Of a stretch of 64,000 bases of DNA, positions 43,501-60,901 are shown one piece after another. The stretch's first letter is position 1, and every line of letters starts with the position of its first letter. Position numbers and translations under genes: made by a program. The stretch is from the NCBI GenBank assembly GCA_951406725.2, contig OX597814.1:135098001-135162000 (forward strand). Reading direction: 5' to 3'. The notes beneath the pieces were generated by a model, which saw nothing but the letters and a program-made list of their open reading frames with translations, did no database searches and was not told the DNA's origin. The DNA is from Octopus vulgaris. Lineage: Eukaryota.

Positions 43501-44861
43501 AAACACTGCCACATCTGACTGGCCTGGTGCAGCCTTCGGGCTTCCCAGACCCCAGTTGAACCGTCCAACCCATGCTAGCATGGAAAGCGGACGTTAAACG
43601 ATGATGATGATGATGATGATGATATATATATATATATATATAAACACTAACTAATTAACTAAAAGAGAGGTAGGAATCAATTTACAAAGTCCAGTTGAAT
43701 GTTTGATGCAGTATATGCTGGTTTACAGCATTGAGTTCAAATCCTACAATAGATTAGTGTTTCATCCAGAAAAGAGAGATTCTGTCCATATAACTCAGTG
43801 GTTCACAACCATTTCTTGCCTATGGACCCCTTTGATTACTATTCCAGTGGACCCACATAGTCATTTGATTTTTTAAAACTAGTTTTATAGCTATTTCTCT
43901 CAAAATTCCTAACTTGTGTAGGTTGAACTATGTAAAACGTTAGAGACAGAAACCTAGCCGTTTCTTGTAATAAAAACATCCAAAGTAACACTTTTTCATG
44001 GACCCTTAAAATAATACTGTGGATCTCCAGTTTACTATTTTTGCCTGTGTGGACCCTGGTTGAAAACCACTGATATAACTGATGTTATTAATGGGAACTG
44101 AAACAAACTCCATTTACAAATCCAGTTCACAATACTTCTCAGTTAAATTTAGATCATTTCCTATTGTAATTTAAAAGTCTCATGAACTAATGGTGGGAAG
44201 GATGCCACTAAAACTGACATACTATGTCAAAATAATGTTTAACATTAAATAACAGTTAGTGATAATATTACTCTAATATTTTCAAATTGCTGTCAAAAGT
44301 CTTTCATCTACCACAACATTATAAGTTATTACTTTTTAATCCTCAGCAGAATAATGTGAGTGAGTTTCATTAACTGATACAATGCAGTGGAATTCTGCTT
44401 TAAGCATGCCATATAACTCCTCGTTACATTAAAAAAAAATTTTTAGAAAATGTTTGCAAATTTGTTTTCTACATATGAGATTTCACACAGCTATCAAAGA
44501 AAAAAAACTTTTAAAATTTTTTACAAAATTAAAAAAAAAATTACATTATTTAAATTTGATGGATATTTGTCCTTATCTTGTTTGTTGTGAACACAATGTT
44601 ATACCCTCCAGCCTTCATCAGGTGTATCGGGGAAATTTTGAACCTGGGTTCTCATAACTAAGGTATTTTTCGATGTTGTTGTTGTTGCTCTTCTTTTTCT
44701 TCTTATAATTATTCAGGTCACTGCCTGGAATCAAACTTGGAATCTTAGGGTTAGTAGCCCGTGCTCTTAACCACTATGCCATATACCCATGGGCATATGG
44801 AACAGTGGTTAAGAGCACAGGCTAATAACCCAAAGATTCTGAATTCAATTCCAGGCAGTAA

Positions 44862-44918
<57 letters not shown>

Positions 44919-45883
44919 CAACAACAACAACAACAACAATAATAATAACAACAACATATTGTAAAATACCTTAGGAATGAGAGAGAACCCAGGTTTGAAA
45001 TTTCTCCAAAACACCTGATGAAGGCTGGAGGGTTGTGTTAACAACAAACAAGATGAGGGCAAAATATCCGTCAAATGTAGAAGGAAAATTTTTTTTAGTT
45101 TTTAGAATTTTATTTTTAAATCACAGTTTAAAATATGCACAGTCCAAATTTTGGGCTTTAATCCCAGCAATAGACCATTAAATGTGTTTATGGGGAGAAA
45201 GATATTGAAAAACATAAATACATCAGACTGGCAAATAAACAAGGAGAGTATGAGGTGGTCATGAGATGTGCTAAAAATCCCAGCTAATCATGCACCAAAA
45301 AAATTTTTGGGGGTTTATGCATAATCATATGAATTCCCATATGTATAACACAAATTGCAAAACTTTTATGATGATTCCAAAAATTAAAAAGTTAAGTAGG
45401 GTTATATGGTGTGCTTAGAGCAAAATCCGCCTGCAATTCAATGTTAATAGCAATAGTACAGACAGAGGAAACAGTGAATTTAAAGATTAGGCTTTGAACA
45501 TTGGTTTAGTTGATGTAACAAATTCTACATTTTCTAAATTCCAAAACAACACTGTCTACTGCTTTGATTAAATATCAGTATTAAAAAAACACTAACATCC
45601 AATCAAACAATGATATGTTAACACACTTGCACAGTTTCAGTCACCAGGTGGAAGCATAGAGGGTTGAGATTGAGAATTGTGCAAGAGAGTGACACATGCG
45701 AAGAAAGCAATATCAAATACCAAAAGCTTATAAAACAACAATTAGAACAACCACAAGCAAAACAACACCAGCTAAAAGATGCATGTCAAAGACAAGATTC
45801 CTGAGTGATACCTCAGTTTCACTGCTAACGTCTGAAACTGCTTCAAGAGCTTCATGTTCAGGTGAAGAGACTGGGCTTAAACT
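1283..45883 (-). CDS. EEA1: Early endosome antigen 1 (EEA1) orthologue, 22 traced coding exons (816 codons); start codon unresolved, 3' part with FYVE domain outside window
   Basis: All exons have GT-AG ends and compatible phases. The joined protein resembles human EEA1 (recalled, not aligned): EGFICPQCMK zinc finger, LKDEQWYVTELKKELEKYQ, RPEEDDATVLKQELISVQTLM..LEREKE, and KIEAGEGAETAINQLKQEN. Confidence 0.93.
2552..2680 (-). CDS. EEA1: EEA1 coiled-coil exon (QKEELKGKTS...ERELDEN)
   Basis: 129 nt phase 0-0, ttacag acceptor, AAT|GTATGT donor. Confidence 0.87.
3402..3536 (-). CDS. EEA1: EEA1 coiled-coil exon (SELLLASETSRTTERVDLENH...KQEIEQ)
   Basis: 135 nt phase 0-0, CAG|GTTAT donor. Confidence 0.87.
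4085..4960 (-). mobile_element. Old CR1/Jockey-like LINE relic
   Basis: Minus strand LEYCSSIWD at ~4343-4369 and LQSLAYKR motif downstream. Confidence 0.55.
5591..5821 (-). CDS. EEA1: EEA1 coiled-coil exon (NNLTEKVNNLEQELDRK...LQGELQTK)
   Basis: 231 nt phase 0-0, tttctag acceptor, AAG|GTTAG donor. Confidence 0.88.
5942..6312 (+). mobile_element. Family B tRNA-derived SINE; other copies ~10893-11220, 38648-39043, 46838-47010, 61471-61640, 62546-62975
   Basis: Head GTGGCTGTGTGGTAAG..GGTTCGGTCCC (A/B boxes), internal microsatellite, tail GACTGAAACAAGTAAAAGAG. Confidence 0.85.
6532..6585 (-). CDS. EEA1: EEA1 exon (IEAGEGAETAINQLKQEN)
   Basis: 54 nt phase 0-0; conserved EEA1 coil-break motif AGEG. 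Confidence 0.92.
7791..7884 (-). CDS. EEA1: EEA1 coiled-coil exon (EEKLKEMEEQTENLRKDIQRLEVERTDLINK)
   Basis: 94 nt phase 2-0; resembles EEA1 EREDLYAK preceding IQAGEG. Confidence 0.9.
8024..8412. repeat. 23-bp minisatellite (CTCCACACTCGGATGTCACTAAA), ~16 progressively degenerate units
   Basis: Four near-identical units at 8024-8115, then increasing divergence. Confidence 0.85.
8463..8545 (-). CDS. EEA1: EEA1 coiled-coil exon (EKFSDELKAEVREKSTQLQESLRKFAL)
   Basis: 83 nt phase 0-2, AA|GTAAGT donor. Confidence 0.88.
8890..9093. mobile_element. Fold-back element in (TA)n with decayed hammerhead (GAAACAGCTGT type)
   Basis: ~80 bp inverted arms; minus arm CCGATGAA GGGATAT..ATATCTTG GAAAC AGTT GTA; plus arm truncated GAAAC AGCT GTG. 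Confidence 0.68.
9112..9383. mobile_element. Near-perfect ~130-bp-arm fold-back with hammerhead motif (GAAACATATGT type)
   Basis: Loop of about 10 nt at ~9243-9253; plus arm CTGATGAG(9252)..GAAAC ATAT GTT(9329); minus arm has AAAAC ATAT GTC and is 5'-truncated. Confidence 0.78.
9712..9798 (-). CDS. EEA1: EEA1 coiled-coil exon (LQNTLETNQIQVKDLERELEMMNQQFEAK)
   Basis: 87 nt phase 0-0, AAA|GTAAGT donor. Confidence 0.88.
10652..10789 (-). CDS. EEA1: EEA1 coiled-coil exon (LEKTVDERNS...MKQQTDK)
   Basis: 138 nt phase 0-0, tctttcag acceptor, AAG|GTTTG donor. Confidence 0.9.
12280..12447 (-). CDS. EEA1: EEA1 coiled-coil exon (LKEDCKKYQD...ETNERIVK)
   Basis: 168 nt phase 0-0, ttccag acceptor, AAG|GTAAAT donor. 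Confidence 0.9.
12820..13345 (+). mobile_element. RTE-clade LINE RT fragment
   Basis: FIIVLQAITEEFKTGCPWKLLYADDLV..LRINLAKTKVL. Confidence 0.88.
13566..13733 (-). CDS. EEA1: EEA1 coiled-coil exon (FEEELKYYQQ...KLNVENQQ)
   Basis: 168 nt phase 0-0, within ORF 13557..13757. Confidence 0.9.
15056..15161 (-). CDS. EEA1: EEA1 coiled-coil exon (LHSELNSKQSTIHQLELQVEKKNNSVLEIKNEKTK)
   Basis: 106 nt phase 2-0, AAA|GTAAG donor. Confidence 0.88.
15712..16016 (+). mobile_element. Family C tRNA-derived SINE (tandem core); other copies ~2250-2382-, 23643-23860-, 28150-28222-, 31285-31440-, 35030-35240+, 55050-55250+
   Basis: GAGCTGGCAGAATCGTTAGC head and GCCTTTCATCCTTT..GGGTCG.TAAATTAAGTACCAG core. Confidence 0.8.
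16109..16545. mobile_element. MITE with ~85 bp degenerate TIRs
   Basis: TTTCCTATTTG..CTAGAAA..TTCAAATTTTGC versus GCAAAGTTTGAA..TTTCTAG..CAAATAGGAAA. Confidence 0.6.
16858..16926 (-). CDS. EEA1: EEA1 exon (SLKQIGHLEAQLNTLPKSADLS)
   Basis: 69 nt phase 2-2, attttag acceptor, GA|GTAAG donor. Confidence 0.85.
18152..18426 (+). mobile_element. Family A SINE/LINE-tail repeat; other copies ~7280-7692+, 17283-17615-, 19880-20119+, 21300-21600+, 29213-29430-, 32046-32290-, 32810-32894+, 40052-40256-, 43455-43623+, 47124-47361+
   Basis: Shared GAGTGGTTGGCGTTAGGAAGGGCATCCAG..CCAACCCATGCTAGCATGGAAA..(GAT)n, same as RTE 3' end. Confidence 0.85.
19026..19166 (-). CDS. EEA1: EEA1 exon (PEEDDATVLKQELISVQTLMNKVNLEREKEKEDLEKLYNDLHIKHE)
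   Basis: 141 nt phase 2-2; strong resemblance to human EEA1 RPGIEDVAVLKKELVQVQTLM segment. Confidence 0.93.
20361..20419 (-). CDS. EEA1: EEA1 coiled-coil exon (QQLEDKTQQVEKLENQLSL)
   Basis: 59 nt phase 0-2, AG|GTAAA donor; split codon makes R of RP motif. Confidence 0.88.
21122..21208 (-). CDS. EEA1: EEA1 coiled-coil exon (AGDIVTAKALADEVFGQKAALEDHITTLK)
   Basis: 87 nt phase 0-0, tttaacag acceptor, AAG|GTGAAG donor. Confidence 0.87.
22170..23200 (+). mobile_element. RTE-clade LINE 3' end with (GAT)n tail
   Basis: KLKVVDSFRYLG, AMLHGSETW and WYGHV-like motifs, tail ..AAACGACGATGATGAT. Confidence 0.85.
23203..23435. mobile_element. Tc1/mariner-type MITE
   Basis: TIR CAGGGTTGGCCAAAAGTCACC(T/C)GACAGTAAA; TA on left, TG on right. 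Confidence 0.82.
23904..24010 (-). CDS. EEA1: EEA1 coiled-coil exon (AKELRAMASELTETKKQLEEVNQIKAGVEQKAAKL)
   Basis: 107 nt phase 1-0, CTG|GTAAG donor. Confidence 0.9.
24305..24368 (-). CDS. EEA1: EEA1 exon (EREEFEFYRVQMKSFEENQNV)
   Basis: 64 nt phase 0-1, cag acceptor, A|GTAAG donor. Confidence 0.85.
24910..25323 (+). mobile_element. RTE-like LINE 3' end (second family)
   Basis: LRRTERVMVREICGVKL..WYGH-like motif, (GAT)n tail. Confidence 0.7.
25777..25897 (-). CDS. EEA1: EEA1 exon (SQMEELKKQLKDEQWYVTELKKELEKYQEGTDGAIPFTKK)
   Basis: ctcag acceptor phase 2 fits previous exon; AAG|GTAAA donor; alternative phase-0 acceptor gives an exon end at 25890. Confidence 0.9.
28508..28614 (-). CDS. EEA1: EEA1 exon, C2H2 zinc finger 2 (EGFLCPLCKKPLPSQDALEKHYMSVHDGKIPTVEE)
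   Basis: tttttag acceptor, AA|GTAAGT donor, 107 nt phase 0-2, C-x2-C-x12-H-x4-H; frame not shown in ORF track. Confidence 0.88.
30098..30202 (-). CDS. EEA1: EEA1 exon, C2H2 zinc finger 1 (GFICPQCMKTFNSAEILQNHFQEHNVVKRDYADGG)
   Basis: tttcag acceptor, GGT|GTAAGT donor, 105 nt phase 0-0, C-x2-C-x12-H-x3-H. Confidence 0.93.
32896..32995. other. Assembly gap (100 N) within a (GAT)n SINE tail
   Basis: Run of 100 n flanked by ATGATG on both sides. Confidence 0.99.
34359..34745 (+). mobile_element. Family D tRNA-derived SINE with duplicated head; relatives ~48130-48380+ and 55520-55860-
   Basis: Two tandem copies of GGC..TAGTGGTTA(G/A)GGTGTTGGA..GCTCCAGTCCACTCAGC. Confidence 0.72.
34777..35006. 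mobile_element. piggyBac-type MITE (TTAA ends); relatives at ~18089-18586 (SINE inserted), ~19610-20162, ~51734-51963
   Basis: TTAACCCTTTTG..CAAAAGGGTTAA termini. Confidence 0.78.
35470..37130 (-). mobile_element. Penelope-like retroelement fragment (RT C-half, thumb, GIY-YIG endonuclease, 3' pLTR hammerhead), frameshifted
   Basis: GLYRDDTLA RT motif near 36935; YINTGSCHP; PPFSLNIKTRVGKIFL; CSCRGNTTCPLN..VVYKA..YVGATEGPF; WKILEKC..CRLCLAEK..LNSRSE..CLH; hammerhead core at 35513-35587. Confidence 0.88.
38000..38330. repeat. Degenerate ~28-30 bp tandem repeat (CACAGTGTGTGGAATACT core)
   Basis: Recurring TGTGGAATA(C/T) motif at regular spacing. Confidence 0.5.
39762..39966. mobile_element. Mariner-type MITE
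   Basis: GAGGTGCTGAAAAGTTCCTGGC versus GCCAGGAACTTTTTAACACCCTC. Confidence 0.7.
40890..41108. mobile_element. Fold-back element with hammerhead cores in both arms (GAAACCAATTGGTA type)
   Basis: Minus arm CTGATGAA(40972-40965)..GAAAC CAATTG GTA(40895); plus arm CTGATGAG(41026)..GAAAT CAATTA ATA. Confidence 0.72.
41200..43410 (-). mobile_element. Second, older Penelope-like retroelement fragment with Asn/Thr-rich linker and 3' hammerhead relic
   Basis: YINASSNHP thumb motif near 43250; IIWLVIPF..IIDKH (ORF 42139..42588); IYIGTT and DLCLSE GIY-YIG-region motifs; GCATT CTGAAGA..GAAAC AATC ATA AATGC at 41249-41296. Confidence 0.78.
43796..44072. mobile_element. hAT-type MITE with perfect 8-bp TSD
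   Basis: CAGTGGTTCACAACC..GGTTGAAAACCACTG; TSD ATATAACT at 43788-43795 and 44073-44080. Confidence 0.88.
44554..45076. mobile_element. Palindromic head-to-head dimer of a tRNA-derived SINE with CTGATGA-containing tail
   Basis: Centre CCCATGGG (44786-44793); each arm has A-box-like (T/C)AGTGGTTAAGAGC, B-box-like sequence, AAT/AAC microsatellite, then CACCTGATGAAGGCTGGAGG. Confidence 0.78.
45812..45883 (-). CDS. EEA1: EEA1 exon, acidic N-terminal segment SLSPVSSPEHEALEAVSDVSSETE
   Basis: Acceptor ttttttccag, donor GAG|GTATC, 72 nt phase 0-0; supplies the E preceding GFICP as in EEA1. Confidence 0.75.
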
Positions 45884-46186
45884 CTGGAAAAAAAGCAAAA
45901 AGAGTTTATTTATTTTTATTATATTACTCATACAGAGATGTCTGTGACAACATGGTTTGTAGCTAGCATCCCCCTGAGATACAAGACCTCCAAAGAGTCA
46001 ACATTATAGATATTGACCAACTTAAGAATTCAGAATAAAATCACCTGAAACACTGTAAAGATAACAGAATCAAAATTATATCTAAATTCATTTTATAGTA
46101 AAAAAAAAAAAATGCAGGACAATAAATAGCAACATCATTTAGTGATCAGAATGGGACACCGAATCTAACAAACTATTTAAAGATAG

Positions 46187-46648
46187 AGTGGTTGTATACT
46201 GTCAACATAACGTGACAGTCCCATAAGGGAATTACACCACCGCTGTTTAGCCCTATCGGCTCTGATACATTTCCTGTGTCCTTATATTTGCGAAGGGGAG
46301 GCAAGCACCCCCACCTGCTAGGATTCACACCTGAGGACATGCATGTTTCTGGGTCTTAACCCATCATCAGCCCAGGATAGTGAGACCTGCTGGTTGAGAT
46401 GCCTGCCTAGCCTTCGCAAATATATATATTTACAGTGAAATCTATTCACTGGTTACCGTAATTAGAAATATTAAATTTCTAAATGTCTCAAAGAGACATG
46501 AGCGGTGGTGGAGCGATATAGTGGTTGTATAATGTCAACATAACTTGACAGTCCCGTAAGGGAATTACACCACTGCTGTTTAGCCCTAGGAAGCATCGAC
46601 GCTTCCTGTCGGCTTTGACACATTTCCTGTGTCCTTAGATTTGCGAAG
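46187..46648 (-). mobile_element. Retrozyme-like element: ~333-353 bp unit with ~110-130 bp terminal direct repeat and one hammerhead
   Basis: Direct repeats 46187-46295 and 46520-46648 flank the hammerhead-containing hairpin 46284-46423. Confidence 0.65.
46330..46376 (-). ncRNA. Type I minimal hammerhead ribozyme, apparently intact
   Basis: Minus strand reads CCTGGG CTGATGA TGGGT-TAAG-ACCCA GAAAC-ATGCAT-GTC CTCAGG: stem I 6 bp, full core, stem II 5 bp plus tetraloop, palindromic stem III, GUC cleavage triplet. Confidence 0.85.
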
Positions 46649-47425
46649 CAACATTTCTCAAGCCTTTTGCTCTTGCAAACCCCTTGAAATACATTCCCAT
46701 CCCAGAGTACTCCTATATGAAAATTATATATCTTCATTTTCTTTTTTTCTTTTATGAAGTTAAATTTTGTAAGAGAGTAAACCAATCATAAAACTATCTC
46801 TGAATGGTTTGGCAATCCTATATTTAACAGATGACATGACTGTGACTGAGTGGTAAGAAGTTTGCTTCCCAACCACATGGATCCAGGTTTAGTCCCACAG
46901 TGTAGCACCTTGGGCAAGTGTTTTCTACTATAGCTTCGGGCCAACCAAAGCCTTGTGAGTGGATTTGGTAGATGGAAACAGAATGAGGCCCATTGTATCT
47001 ATGTGTGTGTATTTATATTCTTTAAGTTTGTTTATGGGAAACATTTTTGAGTACACACATAAAAGCTCCTATGTTGTTATGATGGTTACAGCCTAGTGAT
47101 TCCAACTTGCAACAACAGTTTTATGGCATGTAAAAAGCACCATCCGATTGTGGCCATTTGCCAGCCCCGTCTGGCACCTGTGCAGGTGGCATGCAAAAAA
47201 CACCCACTATACTCACGGAGTGGTTGGCATTAGGAAGGGCATCTAGCTGTAGAAACACTGCCAGATCAGACTGGGCCTGGCGCAGCCTTCTGGCTTCCCA
47301 GACCCCAGTTGAACCGTCCAACCCATGCTAGCATGGAAAACAGACGTTAAACAATGATGATACTGAATTGTGCTGATATAACATAGGATAAATATAGTAA
47401 TAATAATAATAACAACAACAATAAC

Positions 47426-47856
47426 AATAATCCATGGATGGAATTTATAAATATTTTAATGCATCGCTGTACGTTTTCACAAATCACATGCTTTTTGTGA
47501 CCACAGTCTGCATTCCTGGGAAAATTACAATACAATTTGTATTACCCATGGACATCAGGTGGGTCTCTGTTCATGCATTCATTTCTTCAGGTGATCTAGC
47601 ATTAAAGTTGGAACTAACAAATGTTCAACTGAAGGATTTTTATAAATATTCACCAACTAAAAGGCTCATTGGGTTATGTGGGCAGTCCTGGTGTATTTGG
47701 ATTAATTGCGAACAAAGATCCACCTGATGTCATAGATATTACAAATTGTATTGTAATTATCCCAGGAATGTGGACTATGGTCACAAAAACGTGTGATTTG
47801 TGGAAACACGCATAGCGATACATTAAAATATTTATAAATTCCATCCATAGATTATT
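47426..47856. mobile_element. Fold-back element (~150 bp arms) with variant hammerhead-like motif
   Basis: Inverted arms flanked by (AAT)n/(ATT)n; CAC CTGATGT(47724)..GAAAC ACGC ATA GCG(47817). Confidence 0.62.
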
Positions 47857-48986
47857 ATTATTATCATTGCTATATATATGTTGTATGTGTGTCCCCTCCT
47901 AACAACTGATGTTAGTGTGTTTACATCCCTGAAATTTAGCAGTTCAGCAAGAAGATTGAACAGTCAAGTGTCAGTTTAGTTGGAAAGAAACAATGCAGTT
48001 ATTAATAACAAGAAGAGTTGAAATTAATGCATGCAAGATTTCACAGCTCCGGCATCATTCCTTCATAGTTAACCTATGAAGTTTACAGCCCACCCTTGTA
48101 TTGTTATGCAGAAGTCTGCAAATATATTTATGAGAACATGTAGTCTTGTGGTTAGGGTACTGCACTTATGATCATGAGATTGAGGGTTCAATTCCCAGAC
48201 CAGGTGGTGTGTGGTATTCTTAAGCAAAAGATTTCATCTCTGCAATCACTTTGACATGTGACACTAAGTACCTGTACATGTAATATTGATTTGGTGGAAG
48301 CAATAAGCTACTGTGCATCAAAAACATTTTATCACTAAACAAATCATCTGTGCAGAATGTTCAACGAAAAAATTTCAGAACTGTTTTTGTTGGACTCAAG
48401 AGACTACCATTATTATTAGATGTCATAAAGGAGACAGGAGTAGCATTAGCAAATCTCATAAACTATTTAAAATTAAAATAGTGAAACTGAAAATAAAATA
48501 TATTGTGTCCAGCAAAAAATATCACACAGGGATTAATTTTCATTTGGTGAGGTTGATTTAGCAAAGGGATTTGAGGAAAATTACATAACACTAAATCTAC
48601 ACTACCAAATGATTTATTTTTGATATTAAATGGAATATAAATTAAATATTTTGACAAAACATAATGCCCCAATCTCACTGAAACTGATGAGACTTAACTA
48701 GGTTGAAACACCAGCCCTTGAGTTGTTAGACTTGCTTGTTTTCTTCAGGGATTAAAAATCCAAAGTTGTTTTTAGATTAAGGTTGGGAAAACTTTCTGAT
48801 ATAAAATTGTTTCCTATGTTTTGTGCATGTTACATTATTTTCTTCAAACACTATTTGTCAAATCTATGTCACTAGAGTATCTGTCCCCATCCTTTTTTTG
48901 TACTCATGTAAAACAATTAATCCAGACTAGGCAATCATGCTTGTAACAAAACACAATAAAGTGCAAAATAGAAAATACATGTTAGC

Positions 48987-49170
48987 GTGGATGTTCTGCT
49001 AGAACAAACTTTACTGTGTGGATGGCATGAGAAAAACTCTCATACAGGCTTTTGGTACAGAATGCATGCTGGTGATATAAACAAACAAGTGTGCATTCTG
49101 CACCAAAAGTCTGTATGAGAGCTTCTCCCATGGTATCTCTGCAGTAAAGTTTGTTCTAACAGAACATCCA
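48987..49170. mobile_element. Fold-back/MITE-like inverted repeat, no hammerhead seen
   Basis: GTGGATGTTCTG..GAATGCA arm versus TGCATTC..CAGAACATCCAC, ~80 bp arms. Confidence 0.65.
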
Positions 49171-49891
49171 CATTTAAGTGGGAATAAATATTAACCTCAA
49201 AGTGCATAATGTATAATTTAATTATTACATATATGATGCAAAAACACCCTGTAGATTGCAATAGTCAATAAATTAGAAATAACATTAAAAAATTAATTTT
49301 TTCTGTATGGCCATGAGCTGTGGATCATGTGGTACCAGGTTGCCATTTGTGTAGTGGCTGGAAACCACTACACTAAATGATGCATTATGAATATAGACTG
49401 ATGTATAGTCTCACTGAGTTTATAACTTCACTAAAGCTGATAAAAGTCAAGCAGATCTAAATTGTGATTCTTTAGTTCACTCTAGGAGTTATTACTCCAG
49501 CATTATTTTAGAGCCGGACTATGATAATTTCTTATATAAAATTTAGATTAATTTGTGCTTCTATTTTCTCCTGCTGAAAAAATACTTAGGATAAGAGGTT
49601 AAAATAACACAAGGTATTATAGAGTTAGAATTTGTTGATAAAAGAAAACCATTTATACTGTGAACAGCCGAAGAATTTATAAACTTCAAGAGAATATGAA
49701 ATAATTCTCTTTTGGAATGGTGAAACTCAAAGAAGATAAAGCTATAAAAAATAAAGTTTCTAAAGTAGAGAAATTCAAAGGATTGCTTTGGACCCATAGT
49801 AGAACACCTGTCAGGTTTACTGAAGATATAAGTTTGAGTTCCACAGGTAACCTTTAACCTTTTCCATCCAAAGGGTTTTCTAACTCAATCA

Positions 49892-51395
49892 GCATCATCA
49901 TCATTTAGCATTTGTTGTTTGTCCATGCCGGCATGGGTTAGATGGTTTAACCAGGGCTGGCAAGCTGAAAGGCTGCACCAGACTCTGATTTGGCATGGTT
50001 TCTATGGCTGGATACTCTTCTTAATGCCAACCACTCCAAGAGTTTAATGGGTGATTTTATGTGCCACTGGCATGGGTGCCATTTGCATGACACTGGTATC
50101 TGCCATGACTGCGATTTTATTTGGCTTGATGGGTCTTCTCAATCATGACATAATACCAAAGGTCTCAGTAATTGCCTCCATGAGGGCCAATACTCAAAAA
50201 GAGCTTTTCACATGCCACTGGCATCAGCCACTTTGCCTCCATGAGACCCAATGCTCAAAAGGTGCTTTTTACATGCCACTGGCACGGGTGCCAGTATGTG
50301 ACACCAGCATCAGCCATGACTATGATTTCACTTGGCTTGATGGGTCTTCTTAAGCACAGTATATTGCCAAACGTCTCTGTGAGGCCCAAAGTTTGAAGAT
50401 CATACTTCACCACCTCATCTCATGTCTTTCTGGGTCTAACTCTACCACAGGTTACCTCCATAGAGATCAGTACTTCTTTACACAGCTGTCCTAGTCCCTA
50501 TGCATCACATGACCATATCAGTGCAGTCATCTCTCTTGCACACCACATCTGATGCCTCTGAAGAATACTGACTTCATTTCTTTCAAGCCTACACATGTCC
50601 TCGGCTGTTACAGCCCATGTTTCACTGCCTTGCAGTGTAGCTGTTTGCACACAGGCATCATAAAATCTGCCTTTCACTCTGCTAGGTTAACTCTAAGGCT
50701 CTTCAATTCTAGACCTTGCTTCCATACCTGAAACTTCTTCTCTAGTTCTGGTAGTGATTCAGCTATAAGAACAAGGTCATCAGGATAGAGGAGCTCCCAG
50801 GCAGCCTGACTTAAATTCCACTGTTATTGCCTGGAGGAATATGATGAACAAGAGAGAGCTGAGGACTGATCTTTGGTGAACCCCTACTTGTACCCTGAAT
50901 TCTTCACTGCACTTGTTTCCAACCCTCACCTCAATGGTAGTGTCTCTGTACATGGCTTGTAAAGCTCTCACCAACCACTCATCTATCCCTAGTTTCCACA
51001 TTAACTGCCAGATAAGGGATCGGGGGACCCTGTCAAAGGCTTTCTCCATGTCAACAAAAGCCAAGTACAGAGGTTTATCTTTGGCTATGTATTTCTCCTA
51101 CAGCTGCCTTACCAGAAATATAGCATCTGTGGTGCTTCTCCCTGGCACAAAACCAAACTGCATCTCATCTAGACTAAATCTTTCCATAATTAGTTGGGTT
51201 ATGACCCTCTCTGTAACTTTCATCACTTGATCCAACAATTTGATACCTCTGTAATTATTTCTATCTCAGGCATCACCTTTACCTTTGTAGCAGTTGACTA
51301 TAGTGCTGCTACACCAGTCACTGGGTATGACTCTTTCAAGAACCACCTGATTTACAATATGGGTGACTAGACCATAACCAACCCTGCCAGATATT
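49892..51395 (-). mobile_element. RTE-clade LINE 3' fragment (RT domain to GAT-repeat tail)
   Basis: AFVDMEKAFDRVPRSLIW, GVHQRSVLSSLLFII, LY.DDLV motifs; ends in (GAT)n tail shared with family A. Confidence 0.88.
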
Positions 51396-52031
51396 TACAA
51401 ATTATTATTTATAACTCTATCTGCTTCAAGTTACACTATTCCAAAAGAGATTTATACTGTGTTTATATAATCATGTTAAATATTGTGATGAAAGAAACTT
51501 TAAGTTGTATTTCTCATGGCAGACAGATGCGGGGTGAGGACAAAGGGATGGCCAATTTGTCATATTTAATAAAAGTAAGCTGGTTTTTAAAATGTTAAAA
51601 TTGCTCAACACCACAATGAAGAAAGAACTGTATAGGTGCACACACTATTAAGAAAGGCGGGATACAGGCAAAAACTTCACTAGTATTTCTGAGAGTGAGT
51701 GGACTGATATTAGTCAGTCTGAGAATCACTGCTTTAACACTTTGGTTACCTTATTCCTGTTGATATACACTGCCTTTGTTTCAATTAATTTTGAAAATAA
51801 TTAAGAGTTTAGCAAAGTAATTTAATCATTATTAAACTGGTGTTTGGAACATAAATTAAGTCAGAAATTTGTTGGAAAATTTTAATTTGGATCACTTTAA
51901 AACAGAAAACTTATATCATAGAACCAGGGTCAGTCTCAGGCAGGTTGATATCAAAACAGTTAAAGCACATTTTCATCTAATGCAAACTTCCATGGTTTTG
52001 AAAAGGAAAAAAATGTAGTAGATTTTTTGCT

Positions 52032-52738
52032 CACAGATTTTAAAATTATTTTTTAAACTAAACAGCTTGAAACTTCTATACTGGTGTAATTTCTTATGCT
52101 GAACATGGTTCACTTTCAACATTTTTGACAAAATTTTGTATTTTAGAAGTTATTTCATGTTAAAGTTGTTGTATTTGGGTAATTTTAACCAATCAACGAC
52201 GTGTATTCAGTCGAAGAAAGCTACTGCTCTAATCAAAGAGCAACGATTTTCCAGGTCATCTCTACTAAAAGTCACCACTCTATTTTCTGTTCTGTTTTAT
52301 TTTTGTTTATTGTCTGTGTGGCATATTTACATGCTTTTTGATCACCACTTTGTACATTTGTATTTTTACCACTCGTACAAAGAGGCGATCGAAAAGCAAA
52401 CAAAAAAAAAACAAAAAAAAAACAAAGCGTGTAATATGCCACACAGGCAATAAACAAGAATAAAATAGAACATAGAAAATAGAAGATAGAGTGGTGACAT
52501 TTTGTAGAGATGACCCGAAAGTTGTTGCTCTTCAATTACAGCAGTAGCTTTCTTCAGCTGAATACACATCGTTGATTGGTTAAAATTACCCAAATACAAC
52601 AACTTTAACATGAAATAACTTCTAAAATACAAAATTTTGTCAAAAATGTTGAAAGTAAACCATGTTCAGCATGAGAAATTACACCAGTATACAATTTTCA
52701 AACTGTTTAGTTAAAAAAAATAATTTTTAAATCTGTGA
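52032..52738. mobile_element. Long-TIR MITE/foldback element (~300 bp arms)
   Basis: TCACAGATTTTAAAATTA.. versus ..TTTAAATCTGTGA; mirrored ORFs 52136+ and 52632- translate near-identically. Confidence 0.8.
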
Positions 52739-52824
52739 ATGAAACTGAAGAGATCTGATTTTTTTTCAAATTGAAGTAAACAATTGAGATTAGGAATTTT
52801 TAAAAACAAAAATCTTTTTAGTAT

Positions 52825-53017
52825 TTAACCCTTTAGCATTTAAACCAGCCACATCTGGCCAAAATATTCTACCTGCTTTATGTTCAAACTTGTCAGAGCT
52901 GGCCTCTCATACCAACCCTACATTATCATTCTAAAAAATTAAGTTACCTCATCGAACACTCAAAATTACAAAATAATGCATTACTTTTGACAAACTAATG
53001 TGAATGCTAAAGGGTTA
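52825..53017. mobile_element. piggyBac-type MITE, second family; relatives at ~30500-30870 and ~34064-34274
   Basis: TTAACCCTTTAGCATT..AATGCTAAAGGGTTAA. Confidence 0.78.
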
Positions 53018-54527
53018 AATCCATACTACATTTTGTCTAGTTTGATCTTTGATTATCATAAAATGCTTTATTCTTGGATGTGCACATAATAACAAACTAA
53101 TTTTGGAAAAAGAATCACAGTAAACCCTCGGTTTAATACATTTCAAATTTAATGGAATAATAATAATACAATACAGTACTACTATGATGGTCACAGCAAA
53201 ATACTTTTCTACTATACAGTCAAAAAGGTAAGTAAAAAGCACATATGCATTATTATGAGTTAATAATTTTATATTGTACAGTTTTGCATATTGTATTAAA
53301 ACAGATTTTCTTTTTACATTAAAAATGATTAGAAAATTAGTTTACCTTTGATTTAACAGAGTTTTGGCAATAATAGAAATACCTGCCTGCCTCTATGAAA
53401 TCAAGGATTTACTCTATAAAATTGAAATTAAGTCCATACTTTGAATATAGCTTGTTTCTACTTGTATGTATACATTTTGAACTGATCAAAACAGCATAGG
53501 TGCAAATATTGCAAAAAATTATCAGTTTCAAAGATAAATTAGCTTGAAAATTTATAATAGAACACATTTCAGACACTTAGATATTTGAATAAATGCTTTA
53601 AATACACCTATTTTCAGTTATGAACCCTGAAAAGAAAAAGGAGAGAAGGGAATTGATTTTTGATTCTGCTCTTGTAAGTATTAGAAGAGAATTAACTAAG
53701 ACAAATGACTATGCCATGGTTTGTGAGTTGTAATTTACTGCACAGAAGCATGTTTTTGTGTCTGGGAAGTGCGTCTAATTTGATTTGCATCAGTTTTTCT
53801 TGTGATGTTCATGGCCTTTTAATGATATTAATGAAAGTAGAATGGGGAAAAAAACAGTCCTGTAACTATTCTCTCTGAAGCAGGGGAAAGAGCATTCACC
53901 TGTCAGTAGTGATTAAATATTATTTAACCAGACAAATTCATAAAGTCAAACCTTGTAACTACATCTATTGTTAATCCCTACTTTTCATAAGCACACCAAC
54001 ATACTTGTAATTCCAATTCATTCAAGAACCTATATATGATATATTTGTATAGCTGAGGTAAATATCAATGGGCTTTATTTGAATTAATTTGCCTGACAAA
54101 TGGTTCTAACACTTCACAGTTGAGTTGTTAGTAACAATAACATCTATTAAAATTACAGTAGTCATAGCCAGTGTTAGCATTCAATTCAGGGTGTAACAAA
54201 AAAGTTACATTGAAAAACAAATGCAGTTTTCATTCTTTTGACAAATATGGAAGACAGTTCTAGACATATTCAGATTTTATGAAACCTCTTCAATGGACAA
54301 CAATGATATATTTTCTGAATATTTCTATTTTTTCTACAGCAATCAATCAATGTATATTTTTGTTCATTTATTTAGTTATTCTCTCAACAATGCTTCAGCA
54401 CATACAGTTAAATATATGCTTAGCTAATGAGATCTAATAAGATTGAAATACATCCAAAGTTGTTTATCATACATGCTCTTTTTTAAAATCTTCCAGTCAT
54501 TAAATATACTTTCATGTATTCATTGTA

Positions 54528-54561
<34 letters not shown>

Positions 54562-55959
54562 CTTTCCTCTATTAATCTCGTAAATATGTGAATAGCTATG
54601 TTTTGCTGAAGAGGTCTAATAAAATTGAAACATGTCCAGAGTTGTCATTTTGTCTGCTAAAGCTCAAACTATTCTTCTCTCACTATGTTGCCTATTTCTT
54701 ATATAAAGACTAGGAAACAAGCCCATTTCAAAGAGCAGTTTTAAAAATTATTTTTGAGTTATTGCACTTATCTTTGCTGGTTGATTTAAGCATAATTCAT
54801 GAATATAATGTTGACTAACGAAAGTTATCATGCTCACCACACTGTATTACTGGTTATTTCACCATCTATAATCTAATGTGTTTACTAAAGAAGCTGCACT
54901 TCTGCCGAAGAGCTTTAACAAAAGCTAAGTTGGTCCAGAGTTCCCTCCCATACTTTCCAAGTAAAAGAAAAAAAAAAAAATGCTGATCGTTAACTAACAT
55001 TATTTAATGTGTAAAAATAATATCATCAAGTAATATTACTTCTTAATGTAAGGTGGTGAGCTGGCATAATCATTACTGTGCCAGGTAAAATGCTTAGCTG
55101 TATTTTGTCTGTCTTTACATTCCGAGTTCAAATGTTACTGAGGTCGACTTTGGGGTTGATAAAATAAGGACCAGTTGAGCATGAGTTGATGTAATCAACT
55201 TACACGCCCACCTCCAAATTGCTGGCCTTGTGCCAAAGATTGAAGCCAATATTACTTCCTAATTTCAATATACTTTTGATTTTTAATGCTCAAATCATTC
55301 AACAAGTGGATGGTCCTTGAGTGCTTTTAGCAACATTCAAACTGTAGACAGCATTAGGATCAACCCTCATGTTTGTAGTAGAGATATTTAAGCTGGACAC
55401 CAACTGCAATCTTATTAGTCTTGGAAGGAACTATAAAGATTATAGGTACTGTCCCCTCCTCTGATGACTAACTTATGTAACTGAAAAAATAAAATAATAT
55501 CTTGGTCATTACAAAACTTAGGTGAGAGCTGTATAAACCATGTTAACTGGCACACTGTCGGTTACAACGATGAGGGTTCCACATGATACCTGTTCGTGAT
55601 TAACAGAACAGCCTGCTCGTGATTAACGTGCATGTGGCTGACCACTCCACAGACACGTGTACCCTTAACGTAGTTCTCAGGGAGATTCTGTGTGACACAG
55701 AGTATGACAAGGCTGGCCCTTTGAAATACAGGTACAACTCATTTTTGCCAGCAGAGTGGACTGGAGCAGCGTGAATTAAAGTGTCTTGCTCAAGGATACA
55801 ATGCCTTGCCGGACATTGAACTTACGACCTTGTGACAGTGAGCTGAATACTCTAACCACCTAATGACCTAGATTTCAAAGCTGAATCTATTGAAGTATTA
55901 GGGGATACATTCTAAATGCAGATGTAAAGAAAAGTAGGAATTCTAGATGATGTATTTAA

Positions 55960-56445
55960 TGTAAACAAAGAGTTCATGATGTATGTGGGATTACAAGTTA
56001 GCTGATAGAGAAGACCTCGTTTGCAACAGATGCACTGAAATCGCTAACACGAAGAGCACCCATAATGTAAATCATTATAAATACCCAGAGGGCTCGCCAG
56101 AAGTAGTTAATAGCTTCCATTATTTAACTGACCTAATTTGCAGGGGAGGAGGGTATCCCAAAAGCATAGAAATCAATATAAGAATGGGTAGGAAAAACTT
56201 AAGGAGTTATATCTCTGGCAACAAGGGGATTTTCTCTCCAAGTGAAAGAAAGATTGTATGACACAAGTAGACAAAGTGCAATGCTGCACAACAGTGAAAC
56301 ACGGGCACTGAATGCAGAGGATGTGTGAAGATTTGAAAGAAATGAAGCAAACATGTTTTCTGGATGTGTAATAAGTATGAATGATGGAGCACTAATGAAG
56401 AGAAAAACAGGGGTATAAAAGGAATCAGGTGTGTACAAAGGAGTA
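55960..56445 (+). mobile_element. Decayed RTE-clade LINE fragment
   Basis: LVCNRC..EVVNSFHYL, similar to 22170 copy. Confidence 0.65.
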
Positions 56446-56807
56446 AAGAAATGTTAAGTGATTTAAATAGAAGTTAATCTGTTCTACTCTGCAAATGACG
56501 AATACTAAAGACATGAAAAGTGGTAAAAGCTAATTTTGGGAGACCTCATGTAGGAGAGGACAAAAAAATTGTGCATGTAAGCATTGAAAACGATGTATGC
56601 TGATGAAGAATAATAGAAACACTTCCTTGACAGAATACAAATAACAAAGTTTTGGGAAAACCATCTATCAACTCATTCTGGTATAGAAAAGAAGTTGGAA
56701 TATATTTTCATAGGATAACCTTTCTTATCACTGAAAATTGATAATGAATTTTTATTTAAATGGGGAACAAAATAAAGGCTAAAATAATGGGCGAAGTTTC
56801 GCATGTC

Positions 56808-57723
56808 GTAGCACAGATTTCCGTCGATTTCCGTAAAAAACTTTTATTTTTTTTTACATAAGTAATGAGAGCGAAAGAGACTAAGAGGAAGCGATTTTAT
56901 GACGAGAAGGTTTCACTTTGAAATCGGCCTGTGTGTGTTTGATGGGGTGTGGGAGACAGACAGTATGTTGTGTAAGTGAAGTGCTTCTGTTAGTGTGTGC
57001 GAAGAGACAGAGAGAGTAATGTGTGAAAGAGAGAGATAACTGATTTTTTACTCGGTGTATGTGTATATGTATGTATGCATGTATGTGTGTGTGTATGTAT
57101 CTATGTATGTGTGTGTGTGTAAGTATGTGTGTGTGTATGTATGTATGTATGGCCGATTCATCGTAATTTTTTACTCGGTGTATGTGTATATGTATGTCTG
57201 CATGTATGTGTGTGTGTGTATGTATCTATGTATGTGTGTATGTGTATGTATGTATGTGTGTATGTATGTATGGTCGATTCAGTGTAATTTTTTACTCGGT
57301 GTATGTGTATATGTATGTCTGCATGTATGTGTGTGTGTGTATGTATCTATGTGTGTGTGTGTGTGTGTAAGTATGTGTGTGTGTATGTATGTATGTATGT
57401 ATGTGTGTATGTATGTATGTATGTATGTGTGTGTATGTATCTATGTATGTGTGTGTGTGTATGTATGTATGTATGGCCGATTCATCGTAATTTTTTACTC
57501 GGTGTATGTGTATATGTATGTCTGTCTCTTCGCACACACTAACAGAAGCACTTCACTTACACAACATACTGTCTGTCTCCCACACCCCATCAAACACACA
57601 CAGGCCGACTTCAAAGTGAAACCTTCTCGTCGTAAAATCGCTTCCTCTTAGTCTCTTTCGCTCTCATTACTTATGTAAAAAAATAAAAGTTTTTTACGGA
57701 AATCGACGGAAATCTGTGCTACT
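56808..57723. mobile_element. Young MITE with ~200 bp TIRs and internal ~120 bp (TG/TATG)-rich tandem array
   Basis: GTAGCACAGATTTCCGTCG.. versus ..CGACGGAAATCTGTGCTAC; four copies of TTTTTACTCGGTGTATGTGTATATG anchor inside. Confidence 0.82.
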
Positions 57724-58249
57724 ACAACCGAAACTATAGGAAATAGGCGATAATGTTATAAATTGAACAGAAACTGTGTAGGTAAAATACATAATGGTAA
57801 AAGTTACAACAGTAAATGTTGTAAAAGATTACGTTTTTTACAGAGGAAAATAATCAGAATTATTAGGGAAAACTGCAATTCTTCCTATAGTTTAGAATCC
57901 TTTTTCTATATAAAAGAGGATTAGCTAATGAAATGAAGTAAAATTACTTCAACTATAAATCACTGAGTTCCTAACATCTCACGATTTAAAGTTGCATATT
58001 GAATTAATTTCATATTGTAGAACTTCATACTAACTGGTAATAATTGCCATGCATACTATGAGAATCCGAGTTTCCTTTCGAAACTATTCTAGCAGTGTAA
58101 TGTAATAATTTGTCTAGTAAAGGAATTTATATTTGAGACTCTAACTAGAATATGCAGCATTTTTCTGGGGAGCATATAAAAAAAAATAAACAAAAAATAT
58201 ATCAGTGGAATCTCAATGCCAAGATTCATTATACCCTACTCTACATAAT

Positions 58250-59200
58250 TACAACAGATTGGAAAATACCTTAAGTAGCACCAAACAGGCTCAAGAGTAA
58301 CGAATGAACGAAAATATATTTTCAGCTCATAAGAGTTTTTAAGAAATGGCTTAAGTTTTATTGCATGTAATCAAATGGAATCGTTATTTAAATTTCATCA
58401 CTTAGTTCTGATATTGAGTAAATACTAAATTGAAGTCCTGTTCAGATCTTGATAAAATTCACACCGGTAATATAGTGTCCGATTCATATCAAATAGAAAT
58501 ATCGCTGGTGGGAGAAGAAAATGAAAGTGTCCACAACGACAATATGGGATCAACAAAAATATTACTTTTTACGAACGAATAGATACCGCTATTTAATTTG
58601 GGTTTTTTTTCCGCTCCTACAAAAAAAAAACAAACAACGAAAAAACCCCAGCAAATCCAGTGCAGCAAAGAACGTAATTTCTTCGGATGTTCTACGCATC
58701 CTAAATTTGTTTTCTTTTTGCAGAGTTATAATTTATGATGCTTAAAGCATACAGAGAAATTACTATTATTTTTTTCCAAACTGGATAATTTTAGACTTTT
58801 GTCTTTATGTACGCCTTTATATATATATATAAAATAAAACCCAGGAGGGAAGGACAGTGCATTCTCATAATGGGGATCTGGCCCTAATGTTTACGAGAGG
58901 GAATCCTGCTAAAAGCACTTAAAACGCCAGTGGGTGGTGTTAAGCCGGGCGATGGTTAAGTACCGCCCAAGTAGACAATGGCGGGATTTGAGCTCAGAAC
59001 GCCAAGAATCAAATCAAATACTACAAGACATCCCATCAGAGGCTTAAACTATTCTACCAGATATTAATATTTAAGCAATATTTTGCAACATTGCCAATAT
59101 TTACTAATAAAGTGACGATCGATGAAACGTGGAAAGCAAGATTTCAAAAAATCGTTTCAGTAGCTTGGTTTCATGTAGTAAGCTTTTTTCATTACACTTA
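58250..59200. promoter_or_regulatory. Relatively CpG-rich non-repetitive region, possible EEA1 (bidirectional) promoter / first non-coding exon
   Basis: CG dinucleotides visibly more frequent than in the introns; minus-strand donor AAG|GTATTT at 58270/58269. Confidence 0.3.
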
Positions 59201-59392
59201 GATCATTAAACCCTTGTGTGGCAGAAGATTCTTTTCATTTCACCCTCCCTATAAAAGGATTTTACCAAGTCAAAGCAACCACTTATTGGATTATAATTTC
59301 GATTCCTACTTGAAATTAATTTCATTTCATTTGCTTTTAGTAAGGACATGGATATTACATTTAATTTCTTTCGACTGGGTGCATTCAAGGCG

Positions 59393-59429
<37 letters not shown>

Positions 59430-59926
59430 ACAGGCGAATTTTTAATATTATACCCGTCTCACAAAACGGGTGTAAACTCTGATTGGAGGATTTTTACAAT
59501 AGCTACCACATCCTCGTGGAGAAGGTTAAAGCAAGAAACTGAGTGGCTGTTTCCTTTTGTGAAAGAATTTTTTGTCCAAAATATTTTTTTTTTCTTTTAC
59601 ATTTTTACTATTACACTCGTCTCACGAGACTGGTGTAATAGTGTAAAAAGATTTTTAAAACCCCTCAACCTCAGGGGTGGAAAAAAATACTATTCTGATA
59701 GCAGGTGCTGCGCAAGGCTCTATTTTCCACGAACTCTGTTTCGATTCCCAATATACTTGGAAAAGGCACCAATATCACAGGTTTCAATTTTCTTACACTC
59801 TGTAAATCAATTAAATTCATATCGATACAAGAAATATTGTTTCGGACTAGGTATCGTGCAAACTTTGGCAGACGAATCAACAAGTTTTTATGTCACCGCC
59901 CCCAACAAAGTACACATATTAAAGCA

Positions 59927-60258
59927 ATGTTCAACACCTTAAAAGAACACAAATTGCTGCAGCTAGCTTATATGATAGAAAATGATAAGTTACAAATCAA
60001 CAGTGTTCGAGATGGTCAATTGTTAACAAACATATTGGAGAATTTTCTTTTGTTGACATTGAATAAAGCACATTACGCCGAAAGAGAAAGTTTTTTTCTA
60101 GAAAATATATTCAGATATAATAATAAAGGAAATCAGGATGTGTCTTTAAAATTACCTTGTCAGAGTCCTTTTTTGTTAGGAATCGACGAAGCATTTTCCA
60201 GTAATTTTGATTATCGTGAATATTTAAAAATTATTTTTAAAGATTTAATTCCTTGGAA
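59927..60258 (+). CDS. Candidate coding exon of an unidentified plus-strand gene (MFNTLKEHKLLQLAY..DLIPW)
   Basis: Part of a 185-codon stop-free non-repetitive frame; ATG at 59927, possible donor AA|GTAAAT after 60258; no homology recognised. Confidence 0.35.
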
Positions 60259-60901
60259 GTAAATTGCTTTCAAACAGAAACACCGCCATAACAGAACGTT
60301 CTTTATTCATATAATAGTGTACAGTCGACAATATAAAGAGACCACTGTCATACAAAGAACTTCAGCCGAACTCGTTTTTATCATATCACATTATAAGGAC
60401 AGGATTGATCAAATTGCTTAATTTTCTTGCATGCAATGTAGGTCAATGTGTTTCTATTTGCTTGCTTCTTTGTGATATATACAAAAAAAGCCTATGTACG
60501 TTTCGATTCTAGCCTATGAATAAATGCATAATTTCAAGAATTGGATTAAACCCAATGGTGAGAATCAATTATCATTTTGAATAATATAGGGTAGAATCTC
60601 TCAAGGGTTTTGGTCTTTTAAAAAAAGGAAGGTTACATGCTTATGGAAACGATTAAATTTAATCCCTTCCATAATCATGTAATTCAAAAATTTATTTGTA
60701 TTCAGATTTTATCTTGGAATGATGTTAACAAATTAATTTACATCCTTACCAACTCTCCATTTTCTCATCTTTTATGAAATAATACTTATAATAATCCCAT
60801 ACATATTGTGGGTTCTTTCTTCGAATATGTTGGTGATTAAACCCGTGAAATTTTTGATATATTAATCCCTTAGGAGGATAAGACATCCTTGACTTGACTG
60901 A

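Follow-up and report, generated by a model that had tools for sequence, protein, structure and literature searches.

The window analysed here is a 64,000-nt stretch of the Octopus vulgaris genome (contig OX597814.1, positions 135,098,001 to 135,162,000), and its minus strand carries exons of a gene that we assign to EEA1. In the PDB, the zinc-finger exon matches the EEA1 structure 3mjh_B (E 8.8e-5, with generic C2H2 matches listed beside it); coiled-coil exons follow it, and 36 kb downstream the same strand carries a FYVE exon. The assignment is based on these three features. No match came from a homolog search with the 42-aa zinc-finger exon, and a crude motif scan of the 30 kb adjoining the window did not see the FYVE domain because its exon lies further out. 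Contigs from 4 of 4 presumed-RNA runs (3 studies) cover 45811-45885 and then continue with the letters at the 60156 donor, and the joined exons are in frame (MLRRFLTKKDSDK-SLSPV...-GFICPQC). Since these spliced contigs join the 60156 donor to exon 2, a hammerhead ribozyme motif upstream of that exon lies in sense within the first coding intron (Table 1). A first-pass annotation of this DNA had placed the motif about 450 nt upstream of the first traced EEA1 exon on the same strand, in agreement with the 452 nt measured to the acceptor, and had proposed that the EEA1 pre-mRNA contains it, provided that transcription does not start downstream of 46330. The ATG lies to the right of the motif and the spliced contigs cross the intron; the start site must therefore lie beyond 60194, and the pre-mRNA spans the position of the motif.

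Table 1. Features of the hammerhead motif, the surrounding insertion and the EEA1 intron that holds them, in window positions
Feature	Position	Strand	Remark
Type I hammerhead ribozyme motif	46330..46376	-	predicted scissile bond 46336/46335
Stem I	5' arm 46376-46371; 3' arm 46335-46330	-	
Hammerhead core CUGAUGA	46370-46364	-	
Stem II	46350..46363	-	5 pairs; 10.1-11.1 is U-A here, C·A in the family
GAAA	46349-46346	-	
Palindromic stem III, 10 nt	46337..46346	-	monomer: 3-bp hairpin; dimer: 10-bp duplex
Cleavage-site C17 of the GUC triplet	46336	-	
Long imperfect helix extending stem I	46283..46424	-	arms 46283-46318 / 46389-46424, 81% complementary
Whole insertion, 467 nt	46182..46648	-	5'-truncated partial tandem, ~1.4 units; tailless 3' end at 46182
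Upstream partial unit (unit positions 166-353)	46461..46648	-	
Optional 55-nt tail (unit 299-353)	46461..46515	-	internal here, at the two-unit junction
Downstream unit (unit 1-299)	46182..46460	-	bears the ribozyme; 20-nt hairpin deletion
EEA1 first exon found, coding part (MLRRFLTKKDSDK)	60156..60194	-	ATG at 60194
EEA1 first coding intron, GT-AG, 14.3 kb	45884..60155	-	holds the insertion in sense
EEA1 exon 2, 72 nt	45812..45883	-	452 nt downstream of the predicted cut

The next EEA1 intron holds two old, broken fragments on the minus strand (36188-36834 and 42139-43383), which we take to be remnants of Penelope-like RT/endonuclease genes; Pfam gave no useful match for these fragments, and at least 150 sequences related to the first were counted genome-wide. 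Long inverted repeats of MITE-like or foldback type occur in the EEA1 introns at 44566-45063, 47409-47873, 48987-49171 and 56800-57700. On the plus strand, stop-free frames of 246 and 186 aa at 59202-60262 run antisense to EEA1 and overlap its exon 1 in a CpG-richer stretch; neither had a Pfam match.

All core elements of a type I hammerhead are present in the window motif (C3-A9, G12-A14, the A15.1-U16.1 pair and an NUH triplet), in an arrangement of three helices with helix I open, and covariation supports the hammerhead stems. Stem I has six pairs, one of them G·U, and in the predicted fold an internal loop follows these 6 bp. A hammerhead descriptor picked out 3 motifs in the window, where 100 Markov controls predict 0.03, or 0.01 at the stringency of this motif. 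An Rfam search, which the first-pass annotation had proposed as a check, gave no hammerhead match over the whole window at the gathering score or over 45500-47500 at E<=10. The minus-strand sequence quoted in that annotation agrees with ours base for base, as do the stem III palindrome and the predicted cut position, and the long outer helix that it drew on stem I is present, with a folding z of -6.9 for 46270-46440. Its description of the ribozyme as intact holds for the core nucleotides and for the pairing of stems I and II, and hides a non-canonical position 10.1-11.1, where the G10.1-C11.1 pair is absent and U-A stands instead. The label "minimal" in the sense of Cervera & De la Pena does not apply, because a real helix III is present. 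These results confirm the hammerhead motif as real. Hammerhead-like folds also occur at 26325 on the minus strand, in sense within a later EEA1 intron (stem I of 6, stem II of 5, near-palindromic stem III), and at 54606 on the plus strand, antisense in intron 1 (CAUG palindrome, decayed stem II). A core-like string at 48684-48708 was rejected as a further hammerhead as it has no stem I.

Direct repeats at 46182-46295 and 46515-46648 place the motif inside a 353-nt unit that is present about 1.4 times, an element that the first-pass annotation had missed. The unit contains one type I hammerhead and has a GC content of 0.45, below the 50% limit set for retrozymes; its truncated repetition in the window leaves the insertion with a single hammerhead. 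It is non-coding, with no continuous PLE frame across 87 loci, and a 104-aa frame that overlaps it had no Pfam match. The 3' end of the window copy is authentic, since the copy ends at the tailless one of two sites at which family copies stop. No target-site duplication longer than 4 bp was seen by eye at this copy, and many family ends sit in microsatellites. The copy diverges by 2.5% from its subfamily, and comparison with the 12 nearest relatives assigns it 9 private changes in 353 nt, none of which falls in the core; stems I and III are also unmutated. Judged by its sequence, the insertion is an old member of a dispersed repeat family.

The genome searched comprises 2.8 Gb in 227 contigs. 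A search with the unit returned 2647 first-look candidates, and among the 40 that were scored the best non-self matches were 82-92% identical and spread over many contigs. A 34-35-nt core pattern has at least 234 exact copies and a 33-nt 3' motif has 402, each with 0 in reversed controls, while a looser hammerhead pattern gave 1950 matches and 0 in controls. Units join head to tail, the last positions of one being followed directly by the first of another, in tandems that reach about 2.1 units; two loci (L003 and L006) hold two complete hammerheads 353-354 nt apart. Sister families with the canonical G-C pair at 10.1-11.1 account for 584 further matches and form arrays of 351-360-nt units, with 34 head-to-tail neighbours in the first 100 of these matches; neighbouring units are 98-99.7% identical, which indicates that the arrays are young. 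The sister families share the multi-hairpin fold of the unit, with a double change in 35 of 80 pairs across five related sequences. Young canonical arrays of 353-nt and 359-nt units at this level of identity, with inverted arms, were observed at L223-L242 (e.g. G000 C1 20002278-20004542), and they are the most promising putative source of live circular RNAs in the genome. With at least 1950 plus 584 related motifs in the genome, an intact intronic hammerhead is unremarkable, and the window copy reads as an ordinary retrozyme insertion.

Conservation of the ribozyme was assessed in 71 family arms that had not been picked by their core. Mismatches occur at 10 of 781 core positions (1.3%) against 1448 of 15484 elsewhere (9.4%), a gap that may be due in part to the core being free of CpG, and the core is intact in 62 of the 71 arms. 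Compensatory G-C/A-U changes were found across 101 arms at stem I pairs 2.1, 2.3 and 2.6 and at stem II pair 10.3, at a level reached in 0 of 500 shuffles, which did not control for relatedness. Additionally, stem III is a perfect palindrome in 17 of 27 matches of the looser pattern, in six different sequences. The conserved core and the covarying stems support maintenance of the ribozyme by selection at the level of the family.

Position 10.1-11.1 is C·A in 54 of the 71 arms and U-A in 11, and the U-A pair of the window copy is a private C>T change. The stems of the G-C sister families are equal in length to those of the C·A family, so that C·A is a substitution and not an insertion. According to the sections of Perreault 2011 (PMC3088659) that treat this pair, 10.1-11.1 is the most conserved pair after 15.1-16.1; G10.1-C11.1 is highly conserved there but not obligatory, U·U is known, and U·U outperforms the other mismatches. 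The axolotl HHR_Amex2 has U·U at this position and still cleaves, as described in PMC7229834. Since the pair is strongly conserved and U·U is the best of the mismatches, C·A hammerheads may by analogy be slow or of low activity; a literature search for published 10.1/11.1 variants found none. The multi-family C·A clade, beside its young G-C sisters, offers a natural test pair for the role of 10.1-11.1 in dimer hammerheads.

PLE dimer hammerheads have reportedly been worked on by Lunse et al. In the predicted minimum free energy structure of the window monomer the core pairs with the palindrome instead of adopting the hammerhead fold, which lies 3.7 kcal/mol above the free ensemble in a prediction without tertiary or Mg2+ terms. 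When two copies are cofolded, the minimum-energy structure is a double hammerhead whose stem III forms between the molecules over 10 bp; it lies about 9 kcal/mol lower than two separate monomers. The circular 353-nt unit folds at -134.9 kcal/mol (z -8.0, 60 shuffles). Together with the six other perfect palindromes kept in related families, the cofolding result supports a hammerhead predicted to be competent as a dimer, in line with the tendency to dimer cleavage raised by the first-pass annotation.

To examine how copies are inserted, 84 loci were chosen by the 3' motif (87 fetched, 3 overlapping duplicates dropped), and the set is therefore not biased for the ribozyme. Two fixed 3' ends, separated by 55 nt, account for 120 of the 146 arms; 64 of these arms are tailless and 56 tailed. 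An inverted 5' arm is present in 43 of the 84 loci, and 33 of the 34 classifiable inverted pairs combine a tailed with a tailless partner (binomial p 4e-9; 45 pairs in all, 11 with another end left out). Short microsatellites adjoin 61 of 122 ends, (TA)n tracts flank copies, and 5' truncation and partial tandems occur. The part of PMC8557442 that describes PLE insertions lists 5' truncation, partial tandems, inverted 5' copies, a tail at one end and a microsatellite bias; the family shows this same list, with a tail of 55 nt against 30-40 nt. By their anatomy, family copies thus qualify as PLE-type insertions. A third recurring end was observed near unit 75-83, just 5' of stem I (L141, L144, L160, L192, L199 and L202); these loci often share similar flank sequence and may reflect a second target preference or a nested insertion.

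The genome also contains a young PLE-like element with an open frame of 657 aa and the same two-end, (TA)n anatomy, labelled as a PLE from that anatomy, from RT motifs read by eye and from a sub-threshold GIY-YIG match (E 0.013). Its terminal sequence has no match to the unit, and the mobilising partner can therefore be named as a candidate class of elements, not as one particular element. The copies of this element (L091-L105) are near-identical and apparently young, with frames of up to 657 aa, a tail of about 65 nt and (TA)n targets. Their 3' UTR holds a hammerhead variant in which U4 is replaced by C, stem II is long and G12 is preceded by an additional U.

The tail, inverted-arm and (TA)n anatomy that the units share with this young element would also be expected if they were 5'-truncated pLTR ends of an autonomous Penelope-like element, and not an independent non-autonomous unit. 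We consider this very unlikely. Wherever a copy extends past unit position 1 on its upstream side, it continues into the 3' end of the unit itself, with the single exception of L035, where the flank is unrelated, and tblastn with three PLE-like proteins matched 5 of 87 hammerhead loci, none of them continuous with the unit. Among 45 PLE-region loci (30 of 150 matches to the PLE fragment of the window, plus 15 fetched regions of which 14 were PLE-like and one, L103, was a family copy fetched on purpose), no autonomous PLE with a matching pLTR was found and no extended unit match was seen except in L103 itself. Upstream of the family copy, L103 carries a different tandem unit of about 300 nt with scattered GAAA and CUGANGA-like pieces and a possible kink-turn. 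The link to Penelope elements and retrozymes drawn in the first-pass annotation is borne out by copy number and insertion anatomy, with the family read as an independent unit that probably uses PLE machinery.

The same arms bear on the RNA template. A linear monomer starting at the cut would make 5' truncations pile up at unit position 126. Such a pile-up was sought as a mark of cleavage in vivo; 0 of 120 starts lie within 5 nt of the site (121-131), and 44 of the 120 arms cross it. In 24 of 31 cases the two halves of a tandem within an insertion resemble each other more than they resemble copies at other loci, with a median divergence of 7.2% against 9.8%. This anatomy would fit copying round a ligated circle or, equally, an uncut multimeric template. 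Presumed-RNA contigs over 45300-56800 from four runs are swamped by repeats and give no information on strand, ends or circles.

An uncut template would be the rule if the C·A families were catalytically crippled and had spread, with no circle, by way of read-through multimers that a few source arrays yield and that stay uncleaved. The empty cut site would then be expected, and so would the scarcity of head-to-tail neighbours, of which 2 were counted by eye in the first 100 of the 1950 matches, against 34 in 100 for the G-C sisters. However, core conservation and stem covariation persist across diverging subfamilies, different C·A families keep different perfect palindromes, and no upstream-versus-downstream marker variant, as a fixed linear dimer template would leave, recurs in 36 tandem pairs. 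Loss of catalysis on this scale is accordingly most improbable in our view, and we hold the chances about even that the C·A hammerheads are active and that their RNAs are copied from circles by PLE machinery. The tailed/tailless asymmetry, together with read-through of the cleavage site, provides direct genomic support for the mobilisation of animal retrozymes by PLE machinery, a proposal made earlier and little tested; circles are a possible template.

The mechanism that we propose would begin with transcription of head-to-tail family copies, after which hammerheads of neighbouring units would join by their palindromic stem III and release the 353-nt monomer by cleavage, to be ligated into a circle. 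A Penelope-like RT/GIY-YIG protein would then prime at AT-rich DNA from one of two fixed RNA sites and copy straight through the ligated cleavage site, yielding 5'-truncated partial tandems, frequently with an inverted second arm ending at the other fixed site. The window copy would be an older product of this process (~2.5% diverged) with a single ribozyme. That ribozyme would have two routes to cleavage, a weak one as a monomer and one that needs a partner in trans. With only these two routes, cleavage of the EEA1 pre-mRNA would be slow relative to splicing and of little effect.

What, then, does the copy mean for EEA1? It lies in sense, in an intron and 452 nt from an acceptor, its core and stems I and III are unmutated, and it could have been exapted: the U-A pair would let the hammerhead cut nascent EEA1 pre-mRNA, as a monomer or in trans, and tune output in the manner of the CPEB3 intronic ribozyme. 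The helix III of 3 pairs would suit such a role, given that invertebrate retrozyme monomers cleave at 0.1-0.8 per min in the assays described in PMC7229834, and family sequence is found in presumed-RNA contigs. However, an intact core is normal for the family, 11 of 71 copies have acquired the U-A pair by CpG transition, the hammerhead fold of the monomer is energetically disfavoured, no partner exists in cis and spliced contigs exist. A sense motif of this type is expected by chance in about 1 in 200 (0.5%) introns of this length, so many introns hold one by chance alone. Exaptation of the copy is on these grounds highly unlikely, and a regulatory role of the hammerhead in EEA1 is scarcely to be expected. 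Cuts by intronic hammerheads are reported not to block splicing, unlike those of the fast HDV ribozyme (Dye 2006 and Fong 2009, as cited in PMC2995048).

A further possibility is that the C·A lineage cuts only in pairs and that abundant family RNAs, pairing by way of the common palindrome, trigger cleavage in trans at lone intronic copies, setting the output of EEA1 or other genes. If true, this would be a new route for a mobile RNA to regulate genes; the evidence points elsewhere, and we regard it as extremely improbable. The window holds no partner hammerhead with the same palindrome. The special relevance to EEA1 suggested by the first-pass annotation is not supported, as the copy is old and dispersed, has no same-family partner in the transcript and occupies a position that chance can account for. 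Because the motif is one of hundreds of repeat copies, it is probably a harmless passenger and not a gene switch. We thus consider it very likely that the insertion is a 467-nt copy of a 353-nt non-coding retrozyme repeat present in hundreds of copies, pasted into EEA1 intron 1 by what was likely a Penelope-type process and probably inert for the gene; that it is a passenger in EEA1 we hold with the same high confidence.

The known intronic ribozymes differ from the window copy in kind. The hammerheads of RECK and C10orf118 (as described in PMC3088659) and the HDV-like ribozyme of CPEB3 (as described in PMC10919898) also lie on the sense strand of an intron, but they are single-copy and conserved across species, whereas the window copy is a diverged, multicopy mobile repeat with at least 234 exact core copies. 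The PLE hammerheads, or min-HHRs, are likewise of type I, with a palindromic helix III and predicted dimer cleavage, in the account that Cervera & De la Pena 2014 (PMC4209133) give of them. Set against that account, the window motif has a real 3-bp helix III and a 6-bp helix I, has no extra nucleotide after A9, lacks the conserved G10.1-C11.1 pair and does not adjoin an RT-EN frame. No family hammerhead was found in a pLTR flanking an RT-GIY-YIG frame, and the min-HHR signature of no helix III, an extra nucleotide after A9 and G10.1-C11.1 is absent.

Li, Clavereau and Pollet (bioRxiv 10.64898/2026.07.22.740005) treat non-LTR retrozymes as non-autonomous PLE derivatives and thus arrive at the same mobilising partner; their case concerns vertebrates and pLTR homology, whereas the octopus case concerns insertion anatomy, with no homologous pLTR. 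Their definition asks for two complete hammerheads in tandem, and under it the window copy counts as an inactive monomer. They give 42-44% of Xenopus retrozyme copies as intronic, so an intronic position is ordinary, and 8 of 9 predicted Xenopus retrozyme dimers that they report did not cleave in vitro.

The closest system is that of the metazoan non-LTR retrozymes (Cervera & de la Pena 2020, PMC7229834), notably the mussel retrozymes of 350-390 bp and axolotl Rtz_353 with HHR_Amex2. As presented in the main text of that work, these share with the octopus family a short non-coding unit, one type I hammerhead, a GC content below 50%, a self-paired predicted circle, tandem copies, a short palindromic helix III and co-existence with PLEs, and in axolotl Amex2 the pair at the foot of stem II is likewise mismatched, as U·U. 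They differ in forming long arrays, whereas the octopus family consists mostly of dispersed insertions of 0.3-2 units; in having G-C or U·U at 10.1-11.1 in place of C·A; and in that the octopus family displays an explicit PLE tail and inverted-arm anatomy, its circles being only predicted. A cephalopod host is not covered in that main text, and no account of octopus or cephalopod retrozymes was found in the literature searched, although published supplementary lists may hold some, or C·A variants. Non-LTR retrozymes are defined by a unit of 150-450 bp, one type I hammerhead and a GC content below 50%. The octopus family has a unit of this size and GC content, occurs in head-to-tail tandems, is non-coding and has a self-paired predicted circle, and by these sequence features we judge it to be a new cephalopod addition to the non-LTR retrozymes.
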